DNA from: an uncultured Clostridia bacterium
Lineage (GTDB): Bacteria; Bacillota; Clostridia; TANB77; CAG-508
Reading direction: 5' to 3'
DNA: 64,000 nucleotides
NCBI GenBank assembly: GCA_944392665.1
Contig: CALXXJ010000005.1
Location: 1,967-65,966, forward strand
Shown: piece after piece, positions 5,398 to 19,224 of the stretch
How the letters are laid out: each line of letters starts with the position of its first letter
Position numbering within the stretch: the stretch's first letter is position 1
Notes under the pieces: generated by a model
The model's input: the letters and a program-made list of their open reading frames with translations, nothing else
Databases searched by the model: none
Told to the model about the DNA's origin: nothing
Made by a program: the position numbers and the translations under genes

Positions 5398-5859
5398 TTA
5401 TAATCTTCTTCTTCGTTCATATTTTTGTTCTCCATATACTCCACCACCATTATTTTTCATTCTATCACTATCTAAGTTATAACCTTTTATCAGATACTCT
5501 TTTATCAATTTATTTGCCCATATTCTAAATTGAGTACCTCTAATGGATTTTACACGATAGCCTAGTGATATAATTACATCTAAGTTATAAAATTTAGTAT
5601 TATAATTTTTTCCATCTTTTGCAGTTAGTAAGGATTCCTTACTAACTGATTTTTCCTCTAATTCTCCTTCTGTAAATATATTTTTTATATGCATAGTTAT
5701 ATTATTTCTTGTCGTGTCAAATAATTCTGCCATTGCATTTTGAGTTAGCCATACATTTTCATCTTCTAGTCTAACTTCTATCCTAACTTGTCCATCATCT
5801 GTTGTATATATTATTATATTGTTTTGTGAATTAGTTAAATCATTATTCAAATTAATCAC
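5398..5859 (-). pseudogene. N-terminal fragment of a RhuM-family (virulence/Fic-associated) protein
   Basis: 153 aa. Strong resemblance to RhuM N-termini (VWLTQNAMAELF...ITMHIKNIF..GEL, YNLDVIISLGYRVKS..GTQFRIWA). Ends at about half the usual family length in a non-homologous RRRRL tail. Confidence 0.6.
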
Positions 5860-5971
5860 CTACTTTTTTGTGAGTATTATATCAAATTTGTTCACTGGTC
5901 TAAATATATAGTTATAACATATTATTTATATCATTTTTTTACAAAAAAAACAAGGCAAATACCTTAATCTC

Positions 5972-6009
5972 CAGGGTAATTTCATAAAATATTACGAAAT
6001 TGTAATATT
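5972..6009. repeat. IS terminal inverted repeat (left)
   Basis: CAGGGTAATTTCATAAAATATTACGAAATTGTAATATT is the exact reverse complement of 7158-7195. Confidence 0.9.
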
Positions 6010-7134
6010 ACCAATAACTTCCAATAGAAGATTATCATTAAGCAAGCAGTTGAACATGTTTGATTTTACTGTTTGCTTTTTATTCTTTAAATAATTCTTA
6101 TGAATACTTATTCCCATTTTTCTGAATATATTTAAGTTCTCTTGTGCTCTTTGACTTAATAATTTACATCTATCTTCATCATAAGTAACATCTAATATAT
6201 GATGCATACTTTCTATTTCCCAATGCTTCCTTGTATATGATAATAAATTTTCTGCTGTTGTATTCTTGCTACTTAAATAGCAACTAATTTCTTTCGTTAC
6301 CTTATTATCTTTTTCTACTTCTCTTACTACTGCAAATATCTTTTTTAATCCTTTCCAATTTGCTAAATAATCTGTAAAAAATGCTATTTCATTTAGCACA
6401 TAACATGTTCTTCTTTCAATTCTTCCATGACTTTTTTCTTCCGTTTTGTATATTTCATATTCACAATTTTTATCTGTTTCATCCATATATTTGTCATCGA
6501 ACATTGCGTATACATCTTCATAAAAACTTTTTTGATTTGCTTTTAATTGTAAAACATAATCTCCTCCGTTATTTACTATTTTTTCTGCTGTTTCTTTTTG
6601 ACAATGCATTGCATCTACTGTTATTATCATTCCTTTTACATCTAACATGTCTATTAATTCTTTTACTGCTGGAATTTCATTTGTTTTATTATCTACTTTT
6701 TTTTGTAATAATGATATCCCTGTATTTGTATATGCTGTTACAATATTCATCATTTTTTCTATGCTCTTTATTGCATCTGTTGATTTTATTGCTTTTCCAT
6801 CTATCATTATTTGAGTATGTTTTTCTTTTATTAAGCTTTGTACTATTCCTACAATACTTAGCCCTAACCATTTAGGGTCTATCATTACAAATATTCTTGT
6901 TAATGTTGATTTTGATGGAATAGATTCTATTTCAAATTCTTTTTCTAAAAATTCCTTTTTACTACTTCCATAATCAATCATTTTATCTAATTCATCCATT
7001 CCGCATAATACTGATATCATAACTAATTTCAATATGTCTATTAACTTATGTTTTGTTGTATATGCATCTCTTTCATCTTCTATTATTCCAAAATACATAT
7101 TAAATATCTCATTTATATTCATTATTATCACCAA
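5992..7134 (-). CDS. ISAs1-family (H-repeat-associated type) DDE transposase
   Basis: 380-aa ORF with family-typical blocks (IDGKAIKS, TVDAMHCQKETAEKI, GDYVLQLKANQ, RKHWEIESMHHILDVTYDEDRC). The stop codon lies inside the left IR. Confidence 0.85.
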   Translation of the reverse strand: MVIIMNINEIFNMYFGIIEDERDAYTTKHKLIDILKLVMISVLCGMDELDKMIDYGSSKKEFLEKEFEIESIPSKSTLTRIFVMIDPKWLGLSIVGIVQSLIKEKHTQIMIDGKAIKSTDAIKSIEKMMNIVTAYTNTGISLLQKKVDNKTNEIPAVKELIDMLDVKGMIITVDAMHCQKETAEKIVNNGGDYVLQLKANQKSFYEDVYAMFDDKYMDETDKNCEYEIYKTEEKSHGRIERRTCYVLNEIAFFTDYLANWKGLKKIFAVVREVEKDNKVTKEISCYLSSKNTTAENLLSYTRKHWEIESMHHILDVTYDEDRCKLLSQRAQENLNIFRKMGISIHKNYLKNKKQTVKSNMFNCLLNDNLLLEVIGNITIS

Positions 7135-7157
7135 TGAGATTTTAACATATATCTGAC

Positions 7158-7195
7158 AATATTACAATTTCGTAATATTTTATGAAATTACCCTG
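7158..7195. repeat. IS terminal inverted repeat (right)
   Basis: Exact reverse complement of 5972-6009. Confidence 0.9.
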
Positions 7196-7363
7196 CTTAA
7201 TCTCATAATTTTTACAATATTTAAATATAAATGATATAACTTGCTTTCTATATCTTTTCACTATAAGATTAAAAGCCTCGTTATCTCCGTTTAAAAATTC
7301 AGAATATAAGTCAGAATCTTTTTCTGCCTCTGAATATAAAGTTGTCAAATTATTCACCTCCAT
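7196..7363 (-). pseudogene. Sigma-70/ECF-type sigma factor N-terminal fragment, interrupted by the IS
   Basis: First 56 codons (…NGDNEAFNLIVKRYRKQVISFIFKYCKNYEIK) look like sigma region 2. The frame continues across the excised IS for only 10 more codons (5962..5930), so the gene was already truncated before insertion. Confidence 0.5.
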
Positions 7364-7440
7364 TTTTTTACTTTTAAATGTTAATCAATAATAAATACAA
7401 TATTTCTTTTCAAAAGTAACACTTTTTAATAAATTTTTCT

Positions 7441-7479
7441 AAAAAATAAATGGCAACTACTAATTTGGTAGTTACCATT
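7441..7479 (-). terminator. Rho-independent terminator of the 7543..8232 gene
   Basis: 12-bp stem AATGGTAACTAC/GTAGTTGCCATT (one G-U pair on the minus-strand RNA) followed by a U-run. Confidence 0.7.
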
Positions 7480-7542
7480 TTGAATGTGTGCTATTATAAC
7501 CTACATTTCAATTATGATCATTTTTATTATCATATGGAAAAC

Positions 7543-8232
7543 TTATAAAGCTATTCCTAAAAAGCTAAATGCAAATGCAGCAATATAGTATATGACTTCA
7601 ACTTTTATAAATACTTTTAAAGCTTTTTCATTATCTTCTTCTTTAAACATTTCTTTTACAACAAAGAACATTAATACTGTTGATATAACACTTAGTAATG
7701 AAGTTATTGGGTTTGTAACATATCTTATATTTGAACTTATATATGTTAAATATCCTAAAACTACTGAAATTACTACTGGTATTTTAGCAATAGATACTGT
7801 AGTAATTGATTTTGTTAATGATTGTTTATTATCTTTATTTAATACATGAATAATAATAGCCATTACTAATATTTTTAATACTGGTGATAACATTAATTTT
7901 ATTGTTGCTAATACATTAAATTTGTAATAGTCATAAATAATAAAGTCTATAATTTTACTAAGTAAAATAAGTACTACCCATGCAATTATAATAATTAGTG
8001 CTGTTTTATAAAATTGATTTTTATTATCATCTACGATTTCCTTGATAGTTTCTACTGGTTTTCCAAATAATTTACTTAACAATCCTTTTCCTTTTTGCGC
8101 CTCTTCTTTGAAGTTTATGTTTTTCATTTGCTCTTTTGTCTCCTTTAGAGTTTCAGCAGCTTGTTTTTTTAATTCTCCGTCATTGTTTACTTGTTGCTCA
8201 TTTTGTTCATTTACTTTCTCATTTTCATCCAT
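7543..8232 (-). CDS. Hypothetical polytopic membrane protein (Yip1-like architecture)
   Basis: 229-aa ORF. Charged, Glu/Lys/Asn-rich N-terminal ~75 aa, then about 5 predicted TM segments. SD GGGGAGGAAAG. No catalytic motif recognised. Confidence 0.6.
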   Translation of the reverse strand: MDENEKVNEQNEQQVNNDGELKKQAAETLKETKEQMKNINFKEEAQKGKGLLSKLFGKPVETIKEIVDDNKNQFYKTALIIIIAWVVLILLSKIIDFIIYDYYKFNVLATIKLMLSPVLKILVMAIIIHVLNKDNKQSLTKSITTVSIAKIPVVISVVLGYLTYISSNIRYVTNPITSLLSVISTVLMFFVVKEMFKEEDNEKALKVFIKVEVIYYIAAFAFSFLGIAL

Positions 8233-8342
8233 TATTCTTTCCTCCCCTTATTATATATATTTTACTACAATTGAATTATATCAAAAAAGATAAATTTTGT
8301 GAATATTTTATAAGAATCTTTTAATATCTCTTATATTATCTA

Positions 8343-8381
8343 ATACGAAAAAAGTATGCCTCATCTTTACGCATACTTTTT
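8343..8381 (-). terminator. Rho-independent terminator
   Basis: AAAAAGTATGC / GCATACTTTTT stem with an 11-nt loop. U-run on the minus strand directly after the AKR remnant. Confidence 0.7.
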
Positions 8382-8390
8382 CTTATACTT

Positions 8391-8743
8391 TTAAAAATGT
8401 GTTTCATCAATATCTAACTTAGATAATGCTTCATTTAATTTCTCCATTTCTTCCTTCGTTAATACAATTTCACTAGCTTGTAAGTTTTCTTTTAATCTAT
8501 TTTTGGCTACTGTTGCAATTAAATCTAATAATGCTTGATTATGATCCATTACTTCTGGTCTAAATCTTCCCATTAGACAACTGCTGTATCAAAAAAGTTA
8601 CAACCAAGCTGTATAGCTTCTCTTATAATCTTAACCATTTCTTTTTTATCTTGTGCCGGTCCATAAGCATGTGTCATCCCCATACACCCTAAACCAATTT
8701 CTGATACTTCTAATCTACTATTTCCTAATTTTCTTTTATTCAT
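8391..8743 (-). pseudogene. Aldo/keto reductase remnant with internal deletions and a frameshift
   Basis: ATG at 8743 gives MNKRKLGNSRLEVSEIGLGCMGMTHAYGPAQDKKEMVKIIREAIQLGCNFFDTAVV*, an AKR N-terminus. After a frame change, GRFRPEVMDHNQALLDLIATVAKN-RLKENLQASEIVLTKEEMEKLNEAL is an AKR C-terminus. The catalytic core of about 200 aa is missing. Confidence 0.8.
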
Positions 8744-8919
8744 TTAATCGACTCCTTATACTTTAAATTATTTTCTATTTTTCATGCTCCATAGAAATAT
8801 GACGCTGTTCCTGGTCTACATACTGGATGTTGGTCAAACATATTTTTATAAAAACCTCTTTTGGTTGAAAAGTAAAGAGATGAAAAACAAAAAATTAATG
8901 ATAAATCTTACTAAAAAAA

Positions 8920-8948
8920 TTGACAAATGTTTAAAAATTACGTATAAT
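8920..8948 (+). promoter_or_regulatory. Orphan consensus sigma-A promoter (candidate antitoxin sRNA promoter)
   Basis: TTGACA (8920-8925) - 17 nt - TATAAT (8943-8948). No plausible plus-strand ORF downstream. Confidence 0.6.
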
Positions 8949-8954
8949 AAATAT

Positions 8955-9046
8955 AGGAAATGACAATCGCAGAAATGCGGTTACCACATAAAAATATGGA
9001 TAAACGACACATCGCTCTGCCAAGCAAATGTGCCGTTTTATTATTT
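8955..9046 (+). ncRNA. Candidate ~90-nt antisense sRNA (type I antitoxin-like)
   Basis: Bounded by the consensus promoter and by hairpin 9004-9012/9028-9036 plus a TTTTATTATTT tract. Its 3' part is complementary to the 3' end and terminator of the convergent small-ORF transcript. Confidence 0.4.
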
Positions 9047-9154
9047 GCTCAAAAAGATAACCAAAGTTATAATTAAGGCAATATTTATGATAGTTACCCC
9101 TATTAATCCATAGAATAATAGGTAAATTATTGATAATAATGCTGATTCTATCAT
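9041..9154 (-). CDS. Candidate 37-aa hydrophobic peptide (type I toxin-like)
   Basis: GGAGG - 8 nt - ATG (9154). Peptide MIESALLSIIYLLFYGLIGVTIINIALIITLVIFLSK, tandem TAA TAA stops, terminator immediately after. The SD can be sequestered by an upstream ACCACCU. Corresponds to the 3' part of track ORF 9041..9280. Confidence 0.45.
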   Translation of the reverse strand: MIESALLSIIYLLFYGLIGVTIINIALIITLVIFLSK

Positions 9155-9238
9155 AGACACCACCTCCGTTCTCACAGTAAAACTGTGTATGTAGGTGGTA
9201 ACACGAACACATCTACTTTCTTCATTTTCTATGAACTT

Positions 9239-9267
9239 ACTATATAATATTTTTTTATAAAATTCAA
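9239..9267 (-). promoter_or_regulatory. Putative promoter of the small-peptide transcript
   Basis: Minus strand TTGAAT (9267-9262) - 17 nt - TATAGT (9244-9239). Confidence 0.4.
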
Positions 9268-9328
9268 CCGAACAAAACAAAATTCCACATTTTTTGTTAG
9301 TTAATAGTAATTATATTGTATTTTTTAA

Positions 9329-10018
9329 TTATTGTATACTATCTGTCCACTCTTGAATGTCAGAATCTGATGGATTAGATCTAAAACGATGTCCTTCTAA
9401 CCAATTTCCACCATTTGCTTCTTCAGCTAGTAATTCTCCACTTTGTCCTAAACCAGAAGAAGATGAAGTACAGAATGGAATAACTGTTTTTCCGTTAAAA
9501 TCATTTGCTTTTACAAAAGTATCAACAGGCCATGCAGCAATTCCCCACCAAATAGGGTATCCAATTAATACTGTATCATATTCATCCCAATTTTCAACAG
9601 TTGTAGATTCTAATTCTATATCTCTTAAAGATTCATCTTCATATTCTCTTGTTACTCTTGAGTTTTGGTCGTTCCAATTTAAATCAGATGATGTATATTC
9701 ATCAACTGGTACAAGCTCAAAAATATCAGCTCCTAAATTTTGTGCTATTTGCTGTGCAACAGCTTCTGTATGATTTTGTGCTGAATAATATACCACTAAT
9801 GTTTTACCACCAGTTTCTGTTTCTGTATTTTCTCCTCCTGCTGTATTTGTTTCTTCTGCTACTTGACTTTCGTTTGTTGTTCCTTCTATATTTTGTTCAT
9901 TACTGTTAGCAATTTGATTTTGGTTTTCTTGTGGATTACTATTTGTAAAATATACAGCAGCTGCTATAACAATACATAATACCACAATTACAATTCCTAT
10001 AATCACTTTTTTGTTCAT
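9329..10018 (-). CDS. Membrane-anchored/exported flavodoxin-family protein (Flavodoxin_4 type)
   Basis: 229-aa ORF. N-terminal TM/signal anchor, a Asn/Gln/Glu/Thr-rich linker, then a flavodoxin fold (TLVVYYS...GYPIWWG...IPFCTSSSSG). SD GGAGGT. Confidence 0.8.
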   Translation of the reverse strand: MNKKVIIGIVIVVLCIVIAAAVYFTNSNPQENQNQIANSNEQNIEGTTNESQVAEETNTAGGENTETETGGKTLVVYYSAQNHTEAVAQQIAQNLGADIFELVPVDEYTSSDLNWNDQNSRVTREYEDESLRDIELESTTVENWDEYDTVLIGYPIWWGIAAWPVDTFVKANDFNGKTVIPFCTSSSSGLGQSGELLAEEANGGNWLEGHRFRSNPSDSDIQEWTDSIQ

Positions 10019-10060
10019 CGTTTTTACCTCCTAAAATTTATTTATATTAATTACATTTGT

Positions 10061-10091
10061 ATTATATAGGTTTGGAGTTACTCCAAGTCAA
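10061..10091 (-). promoter_or_regulatory. MerR-type promoter (19-bp spacer with dyad) of the flavodoxin gene
   Basis: Minus strand TTGACT-TGGAGTAACTCCAAACCTA-TATAAT. Over-long 19-nt spacer containing the palindrome TTGGAGTAACTCCAA. Confidence 0.65.
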
Positions 10092-10153
10092 TTCTTTTAA
10101 AAAAATTTTTAACTTTTTATTATAGCATTATAGTTCACAACTAAAAGTTATTT

Positions 10154-10211
10154 TCTTGAATGTTGATATAACCGAAAAATTTATGAAATACAAATATATC
10201 AACATTCAAGA
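10154..10211. repeat. Perfect 17-bp inverted repeat with a 24-nt spacer
   Basis: TCTTGAATGTTGATATA (10154-10170) / TATATCAACATTCAAGA (10195-10211), in non-coding DNA downstream of the sigma fragment. Confidence 0.85.
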
Positions 10212-10244
10212 TATCTATTTATAAATTGTAAGTTATAACATTTA

Positions 10245-10412
10245 TTATAAGTTGATAGAGCGACTAAACATAGTCGTTCTATCATCAAAAATAAAAGGGG
10301 ATGTTATTTGTGCTGTTAGTTCTTCAGAAATATCCCTATTTTGCGTTAAGCAGAATAAGTATTTATATACAGTTATAGAGTATTCTTGATATATTTCTTC
10401 GATATTCTGCAT
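10245..10412 (-). pseudogene. Second sigma-70-family sigma factor N-terminal fragment (55 codons)
   Basis: Strong SD GAAGGAGG, ATG at 10412. MQNIEEIYQEYSITVYKYLFCLTQNRDISEELTAQ... matches the start of small clostridial sigma factors, then diverges and stops. Not in the ORF track (<60 aa). Confidence 0.5.
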
Positions 10413-10582
10413 AACTTTTCTACCTCCTTCTATATAATAAGGGAATTTTTTTCTTATTTTGTTACAAAAAAGAAATAATTTTTTAATAATATTTGAATTT
10501 TTTAAAGGCAGATAATTATTAACTAATCATCTGCCTATTTTCTAATATTCTATTCATAAAACATTTCTATATCTCTTCTATT

Positions 10583-19172: not shown

Positions 19173-19224
19173 GAATATATGTTCGGTATGTTTGTATTAT
19201 ATACGAACATTTATTCTTTGTCAA
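19173..19224 (-). promoter_or_regulatory. Sigma-A promoter with two LexA (Cheo-type) boxes
   Basis: Minus strand TTGACA (19224-19219) - 17 nt - TATAAT (19201-19196). Box CGAACATATATTCT lies between -10 and SD (core 19173-19184). A second box, CGAACATTTATTCT as read on the plus strand (core 19205-19216), lies inside the spacer. Confidence 0.65.

Follow-up and report, generated by a model that had tools for sequence, protein, structure and literature searches.

We analyzed a 64-kb stretch of DNA (hereafter the window; 64,000 nucleotides at its full length) from an uncultured Clostridia bacterium (assembly GCA_944392665.1, contig CALXXJ010000005.1, positions 1,967 to 65,966), focusing on the gap between an aldo/keto reductase remnant and a flavodoxin gene. 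An original prediction made from the letters alone had proposed that this gap holds an unannotated type I toxin-antitoxin (TA) locus. Direct reading of both strands of 8500-9700 revealed a gene for a 37-amino-acid (aa) hydrophobic peptide on the minus strand and, facing it on the plus strand, a putative gene for a short antisense RNA that shares its terminator. The minus-strand promoter, the segment complementary to the Shine-Dalgarno (SD) sequence (anti-SD), the inner hairpin, the SD, and the ATG could all be read at the positions predicted for them, and the plus-strand promoter scored 12 of 12 in the promoter scan, in agreement with its description as perfect. We consider it almost certain that these elements form a genuine conserved peptide-gene/antisense-RNA module. 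Its features, including those of the mRNA 5′ untranslated region (UTR) and of the peptide open reading frame (ORF), are as follows.

9267-9239, minus strand: promoter of the peptide mRNA, TTGAAT-17-TATAGT (-35 at 9267-9262, -10 at 9244-9239; 9/12 in the scan)
9232-9155, minus strand: 5′ UTR of about 77 nucleotides (nt), supported by an alignment of 54 UTRs
9232-9222, minus strand: ATAGAAAATGA, motif that opens the 5′ UTR and is common to the antisense RNA
9218-9206, minus strand: leader segment X, AAGTAGATGTGTT
9202-9195, minus strand: leader element GTTACCAC
9199-9193, minus strand: anti-SD ACCACCU, pairing with AGGUGGU at 9165-9159
9187-9183 and 9177-9173, minus strand: inner hairpin CACAG/CUGUG, inside the anti-SD:SD helix
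9167-9158, minus strand: strong SD GGAGGUGGUG (GGAGG at 9167-9163, 8 nt before the ATG at 9154)
9154-9041, minus strand: ORF of 37 codons plus stop encoding MIESALLSIIYLLFYGLIGVTIINIALIITLVIFLSK (codons 9154-9044, TAA 9043-9041)
9004-9012 and 9028-9036, both strands: shared bidirectional terminator hairpin with a 15-nt loop
8920-8948, plus strand: antisense promoter TTGACA-17-TATAAT (12/12 in the scan)
8955-9046, plus strand: predicted antisense RNA of ~90 nt, with a putative start at 8955/8956
Plus strand, at the 5′ end of the antisense RNA: AGGAAAUGA
8965-8982, plus strand: hairpin HP1
8980-8987, plus strand: GUUACCAC, followed by an A-rich spacer, the terminator hairpin, and a U-tract over the stop codons
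9037-9047, plus strand: T-run TTTTATTATTT after the terminator

Peptide gene and its family

The translation of the 37-codon ORF is exactly as predicted and ends in two consecutive stop codons, with the second TAA at 9040-9038 directly after the first on the minus strand. The product, MIESALLSIIYLLFYGLIGVTIINIALIITLVIFLSK, is an almost wholly hydrophobic, single-pass peptide with an acidic N-terminus (E3), a basic C-terminus (K37), and a 30-residue hydrophobic helix in which G16 and G19 are conserved and N24 is usually so. A look-up of the exact 37-aa sequence retrieved no called gene anywhere. With six in-frame upstream residues added to the query, a homology search of 5.8 billion proteins returned 8 relatives; another search, of 1.84 billion proteins, returned 21 cluster representatives, and a scan of one genome per GTDB species gave at least 158 loci confirmed by tblastn. 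The hosts of all 158 loci are metagenome-assembled genomes (MAGs) of uncultured gut Clostridia from humans, mice, rabbits, goats, and others; the carriers include Clostridium sp. CAG:245 and Clostridium sp. 28_17. Judged by these sequence relationships, the peptide belongs to a real and widespread family. The expectation that it falls in no named toxin family was borne out, as no family member matched any entry in Pfam, NCBIfam, or PDB. A full-text search for the peptide motif retrieved no paper, and no source or cluster member carries a name. Loci reached through the neighboring flavodoxin gene (L001-L010) are 99.7-100% identical and were uninformative.

Gene callers nearly always mis-annotate the relatives (P0001-P0027 and L013-L019), reporting products of 41-157 aa instead of 36-39 aa by extension into the 5′ UTR or by read-through of the stop codon. 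Only P0008 and P0012 were called at their true length of 38 aa, and the copy in the window was not called.

The ORF is intact, with an ATG and 36-39 codons, in 90 of the 91 copies compared, the exception being a truncated remnant (L025). The consensus core of the relatives is M-[IV]-E-x-x-L-L-x-x-I-Y-L-L-F-Y-G-L-[IV]-G-V-T-I-I-N-I-A-L-I-I-x-L-V-I-x-L-S-K, and the C-terminus varies by subfamily (...LVIILSK, the type found in the window, ...VVILSK, ...LLHRQ, and ...SKQ(Q)). Amino-acid identity in the family drops to about 51-60% while ORF length, ATG, SD, and stop are still kept. Codon position 2 is the most conserved, with an entropy of 0.35 compared to 0.72 for position 1 and 0.82 for position 3, as expected for a hydrophobic coding sequence.

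The original prediction had itself raised the alternative of a decayed longer gene that shows no conservation of the short ORF or of the antisense promoter in relatives, and the comparison came out the opposite way, with both conserved. A chance ORF in such a gene, accompanied by fortuitous promoter-like hexamers in AT-rich DNA, would be in keeping with some aspects of the setting. The G+C content of the window is 27.5%, the neighborhood is full of gene fragments (aldo/keto reductase pieces and truncated sigma-like ORFs), and 9 promoter-like sites were found in 8700-9400 vs. 5.0 expected. However, conservation of the ORF and of the two promoters extends over at least 80 loci, and a 12/12 TTGACA-17-TATAAT promoter is expected from shuffles only 0.07 times per window, in which two occur. 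Furthermore, the in-frame residues upstream of the ATG change frame between relatives (VLPPTYT vs. VATYIHS). Both versions translate a conserved GUUxCCACCUAC, such that this stretch is RNA, as part of the UTR, rather than protein or part of a longer gene. We regard the chance explanation as already refuted. The second perfect promoter of the window lies at 19196-19224 on the minus strand and is the sole other one.

Promoters, RNA structures, and the shared 5′ leader

The two convergent promoters differ in strength. Of 80 distinct loci, 76 have an antisense promoter with a score of 11/12 or higher, whose -10 box invariably ends 82-101 nt past the stop codon. The mean score of this promoter is 11.7/12; TATAAT occupies the -10 position in 66 of 68 loci, and TTGACA the -35 position in 54 of these 68. 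The promoter of the peptide mRNA is below consensus across the relatives (mean 8.8/12), with a weak -35 box and a -10 box that keeps its place and, among 58 loci, reads TATAGT in 35 and TATACT in 12. A strong antitoxin promoter opposite a weak toxin promoter is the classical type I arrangement.

The predicted sequestration of the SD agrees with the folding results. None of 200 shuffles folded as well as the minus-strand RNA 9232-8995 (z = -3.8), whose fold pairs the SD with the anti-SD. In the alignment of 54 UTRs, the start is conserved as AUAGRAAAUGAGAAUAAGCRGAGUGUGUUGCCACC and is followed by a variable insert, the inner hairpin, GGAGGUGGUG, and the AUG; the insert is short in the subfamily of the window and about 30 nt longer in the subfamily with a C-terminal HRQ. 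The UTR structure is paired in 97.8% of cells overall and the anti-SD:SD helix in 97.3%. Both sides of this helix are nearly invariant, including an invariant GGTGGT in the SD, and the few changes are one-sided and wobble-compatible, such that conservation is strong and covariation gives no support. For the inner hairpin, pairing reaches 98.5% of cells, with compensatory changes at four of the five pairs (e.g., G-C to A-U in 16 sequences). The mean unpaired probability is 0.225 in the SD window vs. 0.512 in the rest of the UTR. A leader peptide encoded by an upstream ORF at the conserved AUG of the mRNA was also considered and rejected, as the ORFs from this AUG range from 2 to 69 aa, are unrelated in sequence, and lack a usable SD.

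The leader is also complementary to the far end of the same transcript. On the minus strand, segment X (9218-9206), just upstream of the anti-SD, is complementary to 9034-9022, where the 5′ arm and loop of the terminator lie, and this complementarity extends over runs of 10-14 nt in nearly all loci vs. 7 in shuffles. The pairing covaries, with AAGUAGAUGUGUU/GGCACAUUUGCUU in one subfamily and AAGCRGAGUG/CAUUCUGCUU in another. Consistent with this, minimum free energy folds of full-length mRNAs from five subfamilies pair the 5′ end with the 3′ end and sequester the SD.

For the terminator, the original prediction had described one hairpin for both transcripts with a U-tract on the plus strand. 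The hairpin and the T-run at 9037-9047 are real, while the stem is Watson-Crick at only eight of nine positions, the remaining one being a mismatch (A.C) in the plus-strand RNA and a wobble pair (G.U) in its minus-strand counterpart. The 15-nt loop holds an inner 3-bp stem (GCU/AGC), and a simple scan did not report this terminator because it limited loops to 3-8 nt. The sequence is A-rich on one side and T-rich on the other, which provides a U-tract in both directions. In the subfamily of the window the U-tract is weaker in the mRNA direction (UUUAUCC), whereas in the majority subfamily it is good both ways; most mRNAs should therefore end there and lack a distal copy of the repeat. Read-through transcripts that form a long 5′-3′ panhandle may occur in the subfamily of the window with its weaker U-tract. 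In the antisense RNA, the terminator stem stops 1 nt short of the second stop codon, and the U-tract alone covers the stop codons.

The antisense RNA retains its structure while its sequence diverges. Folds of 54 representative antisense RNAs contained the terminator hairpin in all 54 and HP1 in 53. The HP1 stems differ among subfamilies (AUCGC/GCGGU, ACCAC/GUGGU, ACACA/UGUGU, and GCCAC/GUGUGC), as do the terminator stems (CGACACAU/AUGUGCCG, AACCAUUC/GAAUGGUU, CACCACAU/AUGUGGUG, and GUCAUU/AAUGAC). Because the structures of the subfamilies are not in register, a consensus from MAFFT and RNAalifold contained almost nothing. Per-sequence folds and model-guided realignment were therefore used, with a covariance model (R1) built from representative antisense RNAs. 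R1 gave 91 matches in 89 sources, with a single match in the window (8955-9052, plus strand, 56.3 bits). In the model-guided alignment, the paired fractions of cells are 97.8% and 86.8% for HP1, where double-sided changes are frequent, and 70.8% for the terminator stem, a value in which minority subfamilies are partly mis-registered. The covariation score was 0.263 vs. 0.131 in shuffles, was reached by 0 of 500, and was above every slid control. A search of 8000-10500 against Rfam at E-values up to 10 returned only four chance-level matches, and the best one inside the module was STnc410 with 13.9 bits compared to a gathering score of 50. A coding role for the antisense RNA was rejected. The ORFs from its conserved AUG are variable (4-64 aa), unrelated, and without a usable SD, which indicates that this RNA is non-coding.

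The two RNAs begin alike. The motif ATAGRAAATGA opens both convergent transcripts, at 8953-8963 on the plus strand and 9232-9222 on the minus strand, and does so in all related loci as well. The first ~12 nt (AUAGRAAAUGAG) are common to both RNAs, and the first ~35-40 nt are similar with a mean alignment z-score of about 5 in 62 loci. At the DNA level this similarity is an imperfect inverted repeat just inside both promoters, with a duplex energy of -35.7 vs. -18.1 kcal/mol in shuffles. The RNAs have a further covarying segment in common, which is GUU[G/A]CCAC, GUGUGUUGCC, or GUGCUACCA depending on the subfamily; the subfamily-specific form is GUUACCAC in the window, GUGUGUUGCC in L011 and L070, and GUGCUACCA in L027. 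Another resemblance involves the terminator of the antisense RNA, whose loop and 3′ arm are almost identical in sequence to the element AAGCRGAGUG of the mRNA leader.

An inverted repeat of this kind, together with multiple copies in varied contexts, would also be seen if the locus were a small non-autonomous mobile or repeat element resembling a miniature inverted-repeat transposable element, with the ORF and promoters as incidental passengers. Several of the observations above make this very improbable. The repeat lies inside the conserved promoters and not at the ends of the homologous block, and ORF length, ATG, SD, and stop are maintained at the low amino-acid identities mentioned above. 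The conservation of codon position 2 and the covariation of the RNA helices also argue against it. No target-site duplications were seen in passing, although no search was aimed at them.

Module boundaries, genomic setting, and copies

In nucleotide alignments of the relatives, the homologous block is bounded by the two -35 boxes, starting a little upstream of the sense one and ending at the antisense one. Outside of the promoters the contexts are unrelated and include genes for TnpV, a tRNA methyltransferase, an AraC-type regulator, spo0A, ychF, uvrC, glmS, a GH94 enzyme, and others. In the window, both predicted flanks were found, namely, the flavodoxin gene on one side and two aldo/keto reductase fragments on the other. 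The neighboring features are as follows.

5992-7134: DDE transposase, in the island adjoining the module
7142-7363: truncated 73-aa ORF with a weak helix-turn-helix match only
7543-8232: 229-aa membrane protein without family
8391-8743: aldo/keto reductase in two fragments of 56 and 60 aa, beside the module
Beside the module: flavodoxin gene (PF12682, E = 1.6e-38)

The region 5398-8743, which adjoins the module, has the appearance of an island in decay. A RhuM-family ORF lies next to the DDE transposase according to the genes called in the near-identical loci L001-L004, and truncated sigma-like ORFs are also among the gene fragments near the module. At 10154-10211, between the flavodoxin gene and a truncated 55-aa ORF, there is a long near-perfect inverted repeat (UCUUGAAUGUUGAUAUAA ... 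AUAUAUCAACAUUCAAGA), for which Rfam gave only a chance-level miRNA match. No second copy of the module was found in the window by tblastn of the peptide or by R1.

Several copies per genome are common in the family; CANPDB01 has three and several other MAGs have two. L017 and L019 have tandem copies, and the second L017 module starts about 170 nt after the first. Neighboring copies were also observed in L039 (3001-3120 and 4604-4720), L095 (3001-3117 and 4072-4179), and L091 (440-556 on the plus strand and 1723-1833 on the minus strand). In L091 and L095, two different subfamilies stand side by side. Adjacent copies often differ in their terminator and antisense sequences, as expected if they avoid cross-talk.

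Four loci lack a recognizable antisense promoter. Two of these (L025 and L041) are remnants in which the sense promoter and leader are gone together with the antisense promoter or 5′ half. The other two (L039b and L085) are considered below. The reverse situation may exist in L011, where an antisense-RNA-like gene at 122-213 (57 bits with R1) has the terminator and the 5′ hairpin and no peptide ORF beside it; this may be an orphan antitoxin remnant.

These distributions bear on the possibility that this conserved small membrane protein is not toxic and serves the physiology of the cell, for instance as a modulator of a membrane complex or in a stress response, and that the cis-antisense RNA merely tunes its expression. 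Many copies lie between core housekeeping genes; in 4 of the 20 species sampled (L035, L065, L086, and L090), the module directly follows spo0A, a core-genome position that is conserved across species. Moreover, searches for the family gave a single match across 2.9 million viral contigs and no match in the collections of sequenced plasmids and phages, so that an association with phages or plasmids was rejected, and the peptide has no long charged tail. All of these would suit a housekeeping function. On the other hand, genomes carry several copies, including tandem copies and diverged subfamilies side by side, the contexts are unrelated, and homology ends at the promoters of the module itself. 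Across loci the antisense promoter adheres to the consensus and the sense promoter stays weak, translation appears locked twice (by SD sequestration and by 5′-3′ closure), and the remnant copies lost both promoters together. Multiple copies, unrelated contexts, promoter asymmetry, the double lock, and joint promoter loss fit a module that must stay silent, and we consider a non-toxic role unlikely.

Probable assignment to type I systems and implications

Taken together, the directly observed sequence elements, conservation, covariation of RNA helices, promoter asymmetry, boundaries, copy number, and decay patterns lead us to favor the interpretation that this is a functional chromosomal type I TA module of a previously undescribed family. 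We hold this to be probable, with transcription, toxicity, and neutralization predicted from sequence. The type I-like reading of the original prediction is supported by the conservation of the ORF, SD, anti-SD, both promoters, and terminator across at least 80 loci. Type I toxins are hydrophobic, membrane-type peptides of less than ~60 aa, and the peptide here has 37 aa (36-39 aa in 90 of 91 copies). A cis-encoded antisense RNA that overlaps the mRNA, another hallmark of the class, is present at the sequence level only, and cis elements that would block translation are represented by the anti-SD:SD helix and the leader-terminator complementarity. T1TAdb recognizes type I toxin mRNAs by SD/anti-SD pairing, a terminator stem-loop, and a 5′-3′ long-distance interaction (PMC8594479). 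The module has all three and thus matches these determinants.

Several findings weigh against a functional TA module. The antisense RNA has no clear complementarity to the translation initiation region, with a longest run of 8.0 nt vs. 7.0 in shuffles. L039b and L085 retain an intact peptide gene without a recognizable antisense promoter; L039b lies 1.6 kb from a complete copy, and the antisense 5′ half is replaced in L085. The peptide lacks the charged C-terminal tail that is a common trait of Gram-positive type I toxins (PMC6563280). The location of many copies among core genes and the near-absence from mobile elements described above also belong here. Finally, a crude pooled ratio of nonsynonymous to synonymous polymorphism (pN/pS) did not single out the reading frame, at 0.49 in frame vs. 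0.45 in the +1 frame.

The closest system in architecture is par/Fst-RNAII. The par locus of Enterococcus faecalis pAD1 has convergent promoters, a bidirectional terminator, a 5′ stem-loop that sequesters the SD, and a sequestered mRNA 5′ end; its chromosomal copies are found among core genes, and the antisense RNA has essentially no overlap with the ORF (PMC7472228). The module resembles par in all of these respects. The shared terminator is likewise a single intrinsic one, the antisense RNA is short and lies on the 3′ side, the mRNA 5′ end is paired intramolecularly, and the product is a small single-pass membrane peptide. The par-type architecture named in the original prediction thus stands for the convergent promoters and the shared terminator and fails for the repeats and the peptide. 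Unlike par, the module has no DRa/DRb direct repeats that would provide a second complementary region over the translation start, and its own repeats are inverted. Direct repeats make the two 5′ regions of par complementary, whereas here the two RNAs carry similar 5′ leaders. A par-like complementarity in trans was accordingly rejected from comparison of the first 50 nt of the antisense RNA with -30 to +15 of the start codon, in which the longest run was the 8.0 nt given above and the duplex energy was -34.8 vs. -32.3 kcal/mol in shuffles. Besides the charged tail, the peptide also lacks the conserved Trp and the P/D/S/TxxxG(C) motif of Fst. The C-termini of 23 aligned members are limited to SK, SKQ, or HRQ, no P/D/S/TxxxG position is conserved, and Trp is sporadic and restricted to the subfamily ending in HRQ. 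There was no match to the Fst models in Pfam and NCBIfam or to Fst or PepA1 chains in PDB. The module is not an Fst member.

Other type I systems share fewer features. Like bsrG/SR4 and txpA/RatA of Bacillus subtilis, the module comes from a Gram-positive host and its putative antitoxin RNA overlaps the 3′ end of the toxin mRNA. Binding of SR4 at the 3′ end of the bsrG mRNA also alters the structure around the distant SD. This case is a possible precedent, by analogy, for a 3′ interaction that acts on translation in the module. However, the antisense RNAs of TxpA/BsrG-type systems overlap the 3′ part of the toxin ORF (PMC8594479), whereas that of the module reaches only the stop codons. Moreover, TxpA/BsrG-type toxins have charged C-termini and are mostly found in prophage regions (PMC6563280), and we found no sequence similarity to them in the family libraries or among the relatives from the 1.84 billion proteins, nor an Rfam match for the RNA. 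Assignment to the txpA/RatA type, whose architecture the original prediction had also named, is not upheld. With hok/sok and AapA1/IsoA1, the module has in common only the principle of a closed, SD-sequestered mRNA through predicted pairing of the 5′ leader with a 3′ element; those systems are Gram-negative, have the antisense RNA on the 5′ side of or within the mRNA, and are unrelated in sequence. The CD-RCd systems of Clostridioides difficile are similar in host class (Clostridia) and in combining a small membrane peptide with a cis-antisense RNA. Their toxins have 34-59 aa and charged Lys-rich C-termini, their promoters are of the Sigma-B type, and their locations are prophages or sites beside CRISPR arrays (PMC6563280). 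None of them was among the relatives found in the 1.84 billion representatives. The kind of system is already known, and the peptide, the RNA, and the arrangement of repeats are all new.

In the mechanism that we propose for such a TA module, a weak sigma-A-type promoter would produce an mRNA of about 235 nt, in which the very strong SD would be locked in cis by the upstream anti-SD and the leader would bind the terminator of its own transcript at the 5′ arm and loop, resulting in a closed and translationally inert RNA. The consensus-strength convergent promoter would supply an excess of the ~90-nt non-coding RNA. Through the common terminator, the two RNAs would be perfectly complementary over about 50 nt, which comprise the stem, the large loop, and flanks including the stop codons. 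Pairing would probably begin between the complementary loops and would lead to degradation of the mRNA, maintenance of the SD-sequestered form, or both, as in other Gram-positive systems with 3′ overlaps. When the antisense RNA is lost, the peptide would be made and would insert in the membrane, and its excess would presumably damage the membrane.

The shared leader raises the tentative idea that the antitoxin acts as a mimic or competitor of the mRNA leader, switching the mRNA between closed and open forms rather than masking the ribosome-binding site. The mRNA leader and the antitoxin could then compete for the conserved UGCUU-containing loop of the terminator; alternatively, a common protein or RNase could read the 5′ end that both RNAs have. 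The shared leader could in this way point to a regulatory logic not described for par-type systems.

Type I TA systems are notoriously invisible to homology searches and gene callers. In the present case, existing annotation overlooks the gene or replaces it with spurious ORFs of 55-94 aa. Only 24 type I families are listed in T1TAdb, and these are mostly from cultured Proteobacteria and Bacilli (PMC8594479). The module would define a further family, provided with a working covariance model and a peptide alignment, and this family occurs widely among the uncultured low-G+C Clostridia that live in the gut of humans, mice, rabbits, goats, and other animals. With its at least four subfamilies and their covarying RNA contacts, it makes up a comparative data set for the control of a distant ribosome-binding site by an antisense RNA at the 3′ end. 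The family may also offer a new class of very short membrane peptides, as well as kill switches or counter-selection cassettes under RNA control, both compact and naturally orthogonal, for gut anaerobes that are hard to work with.

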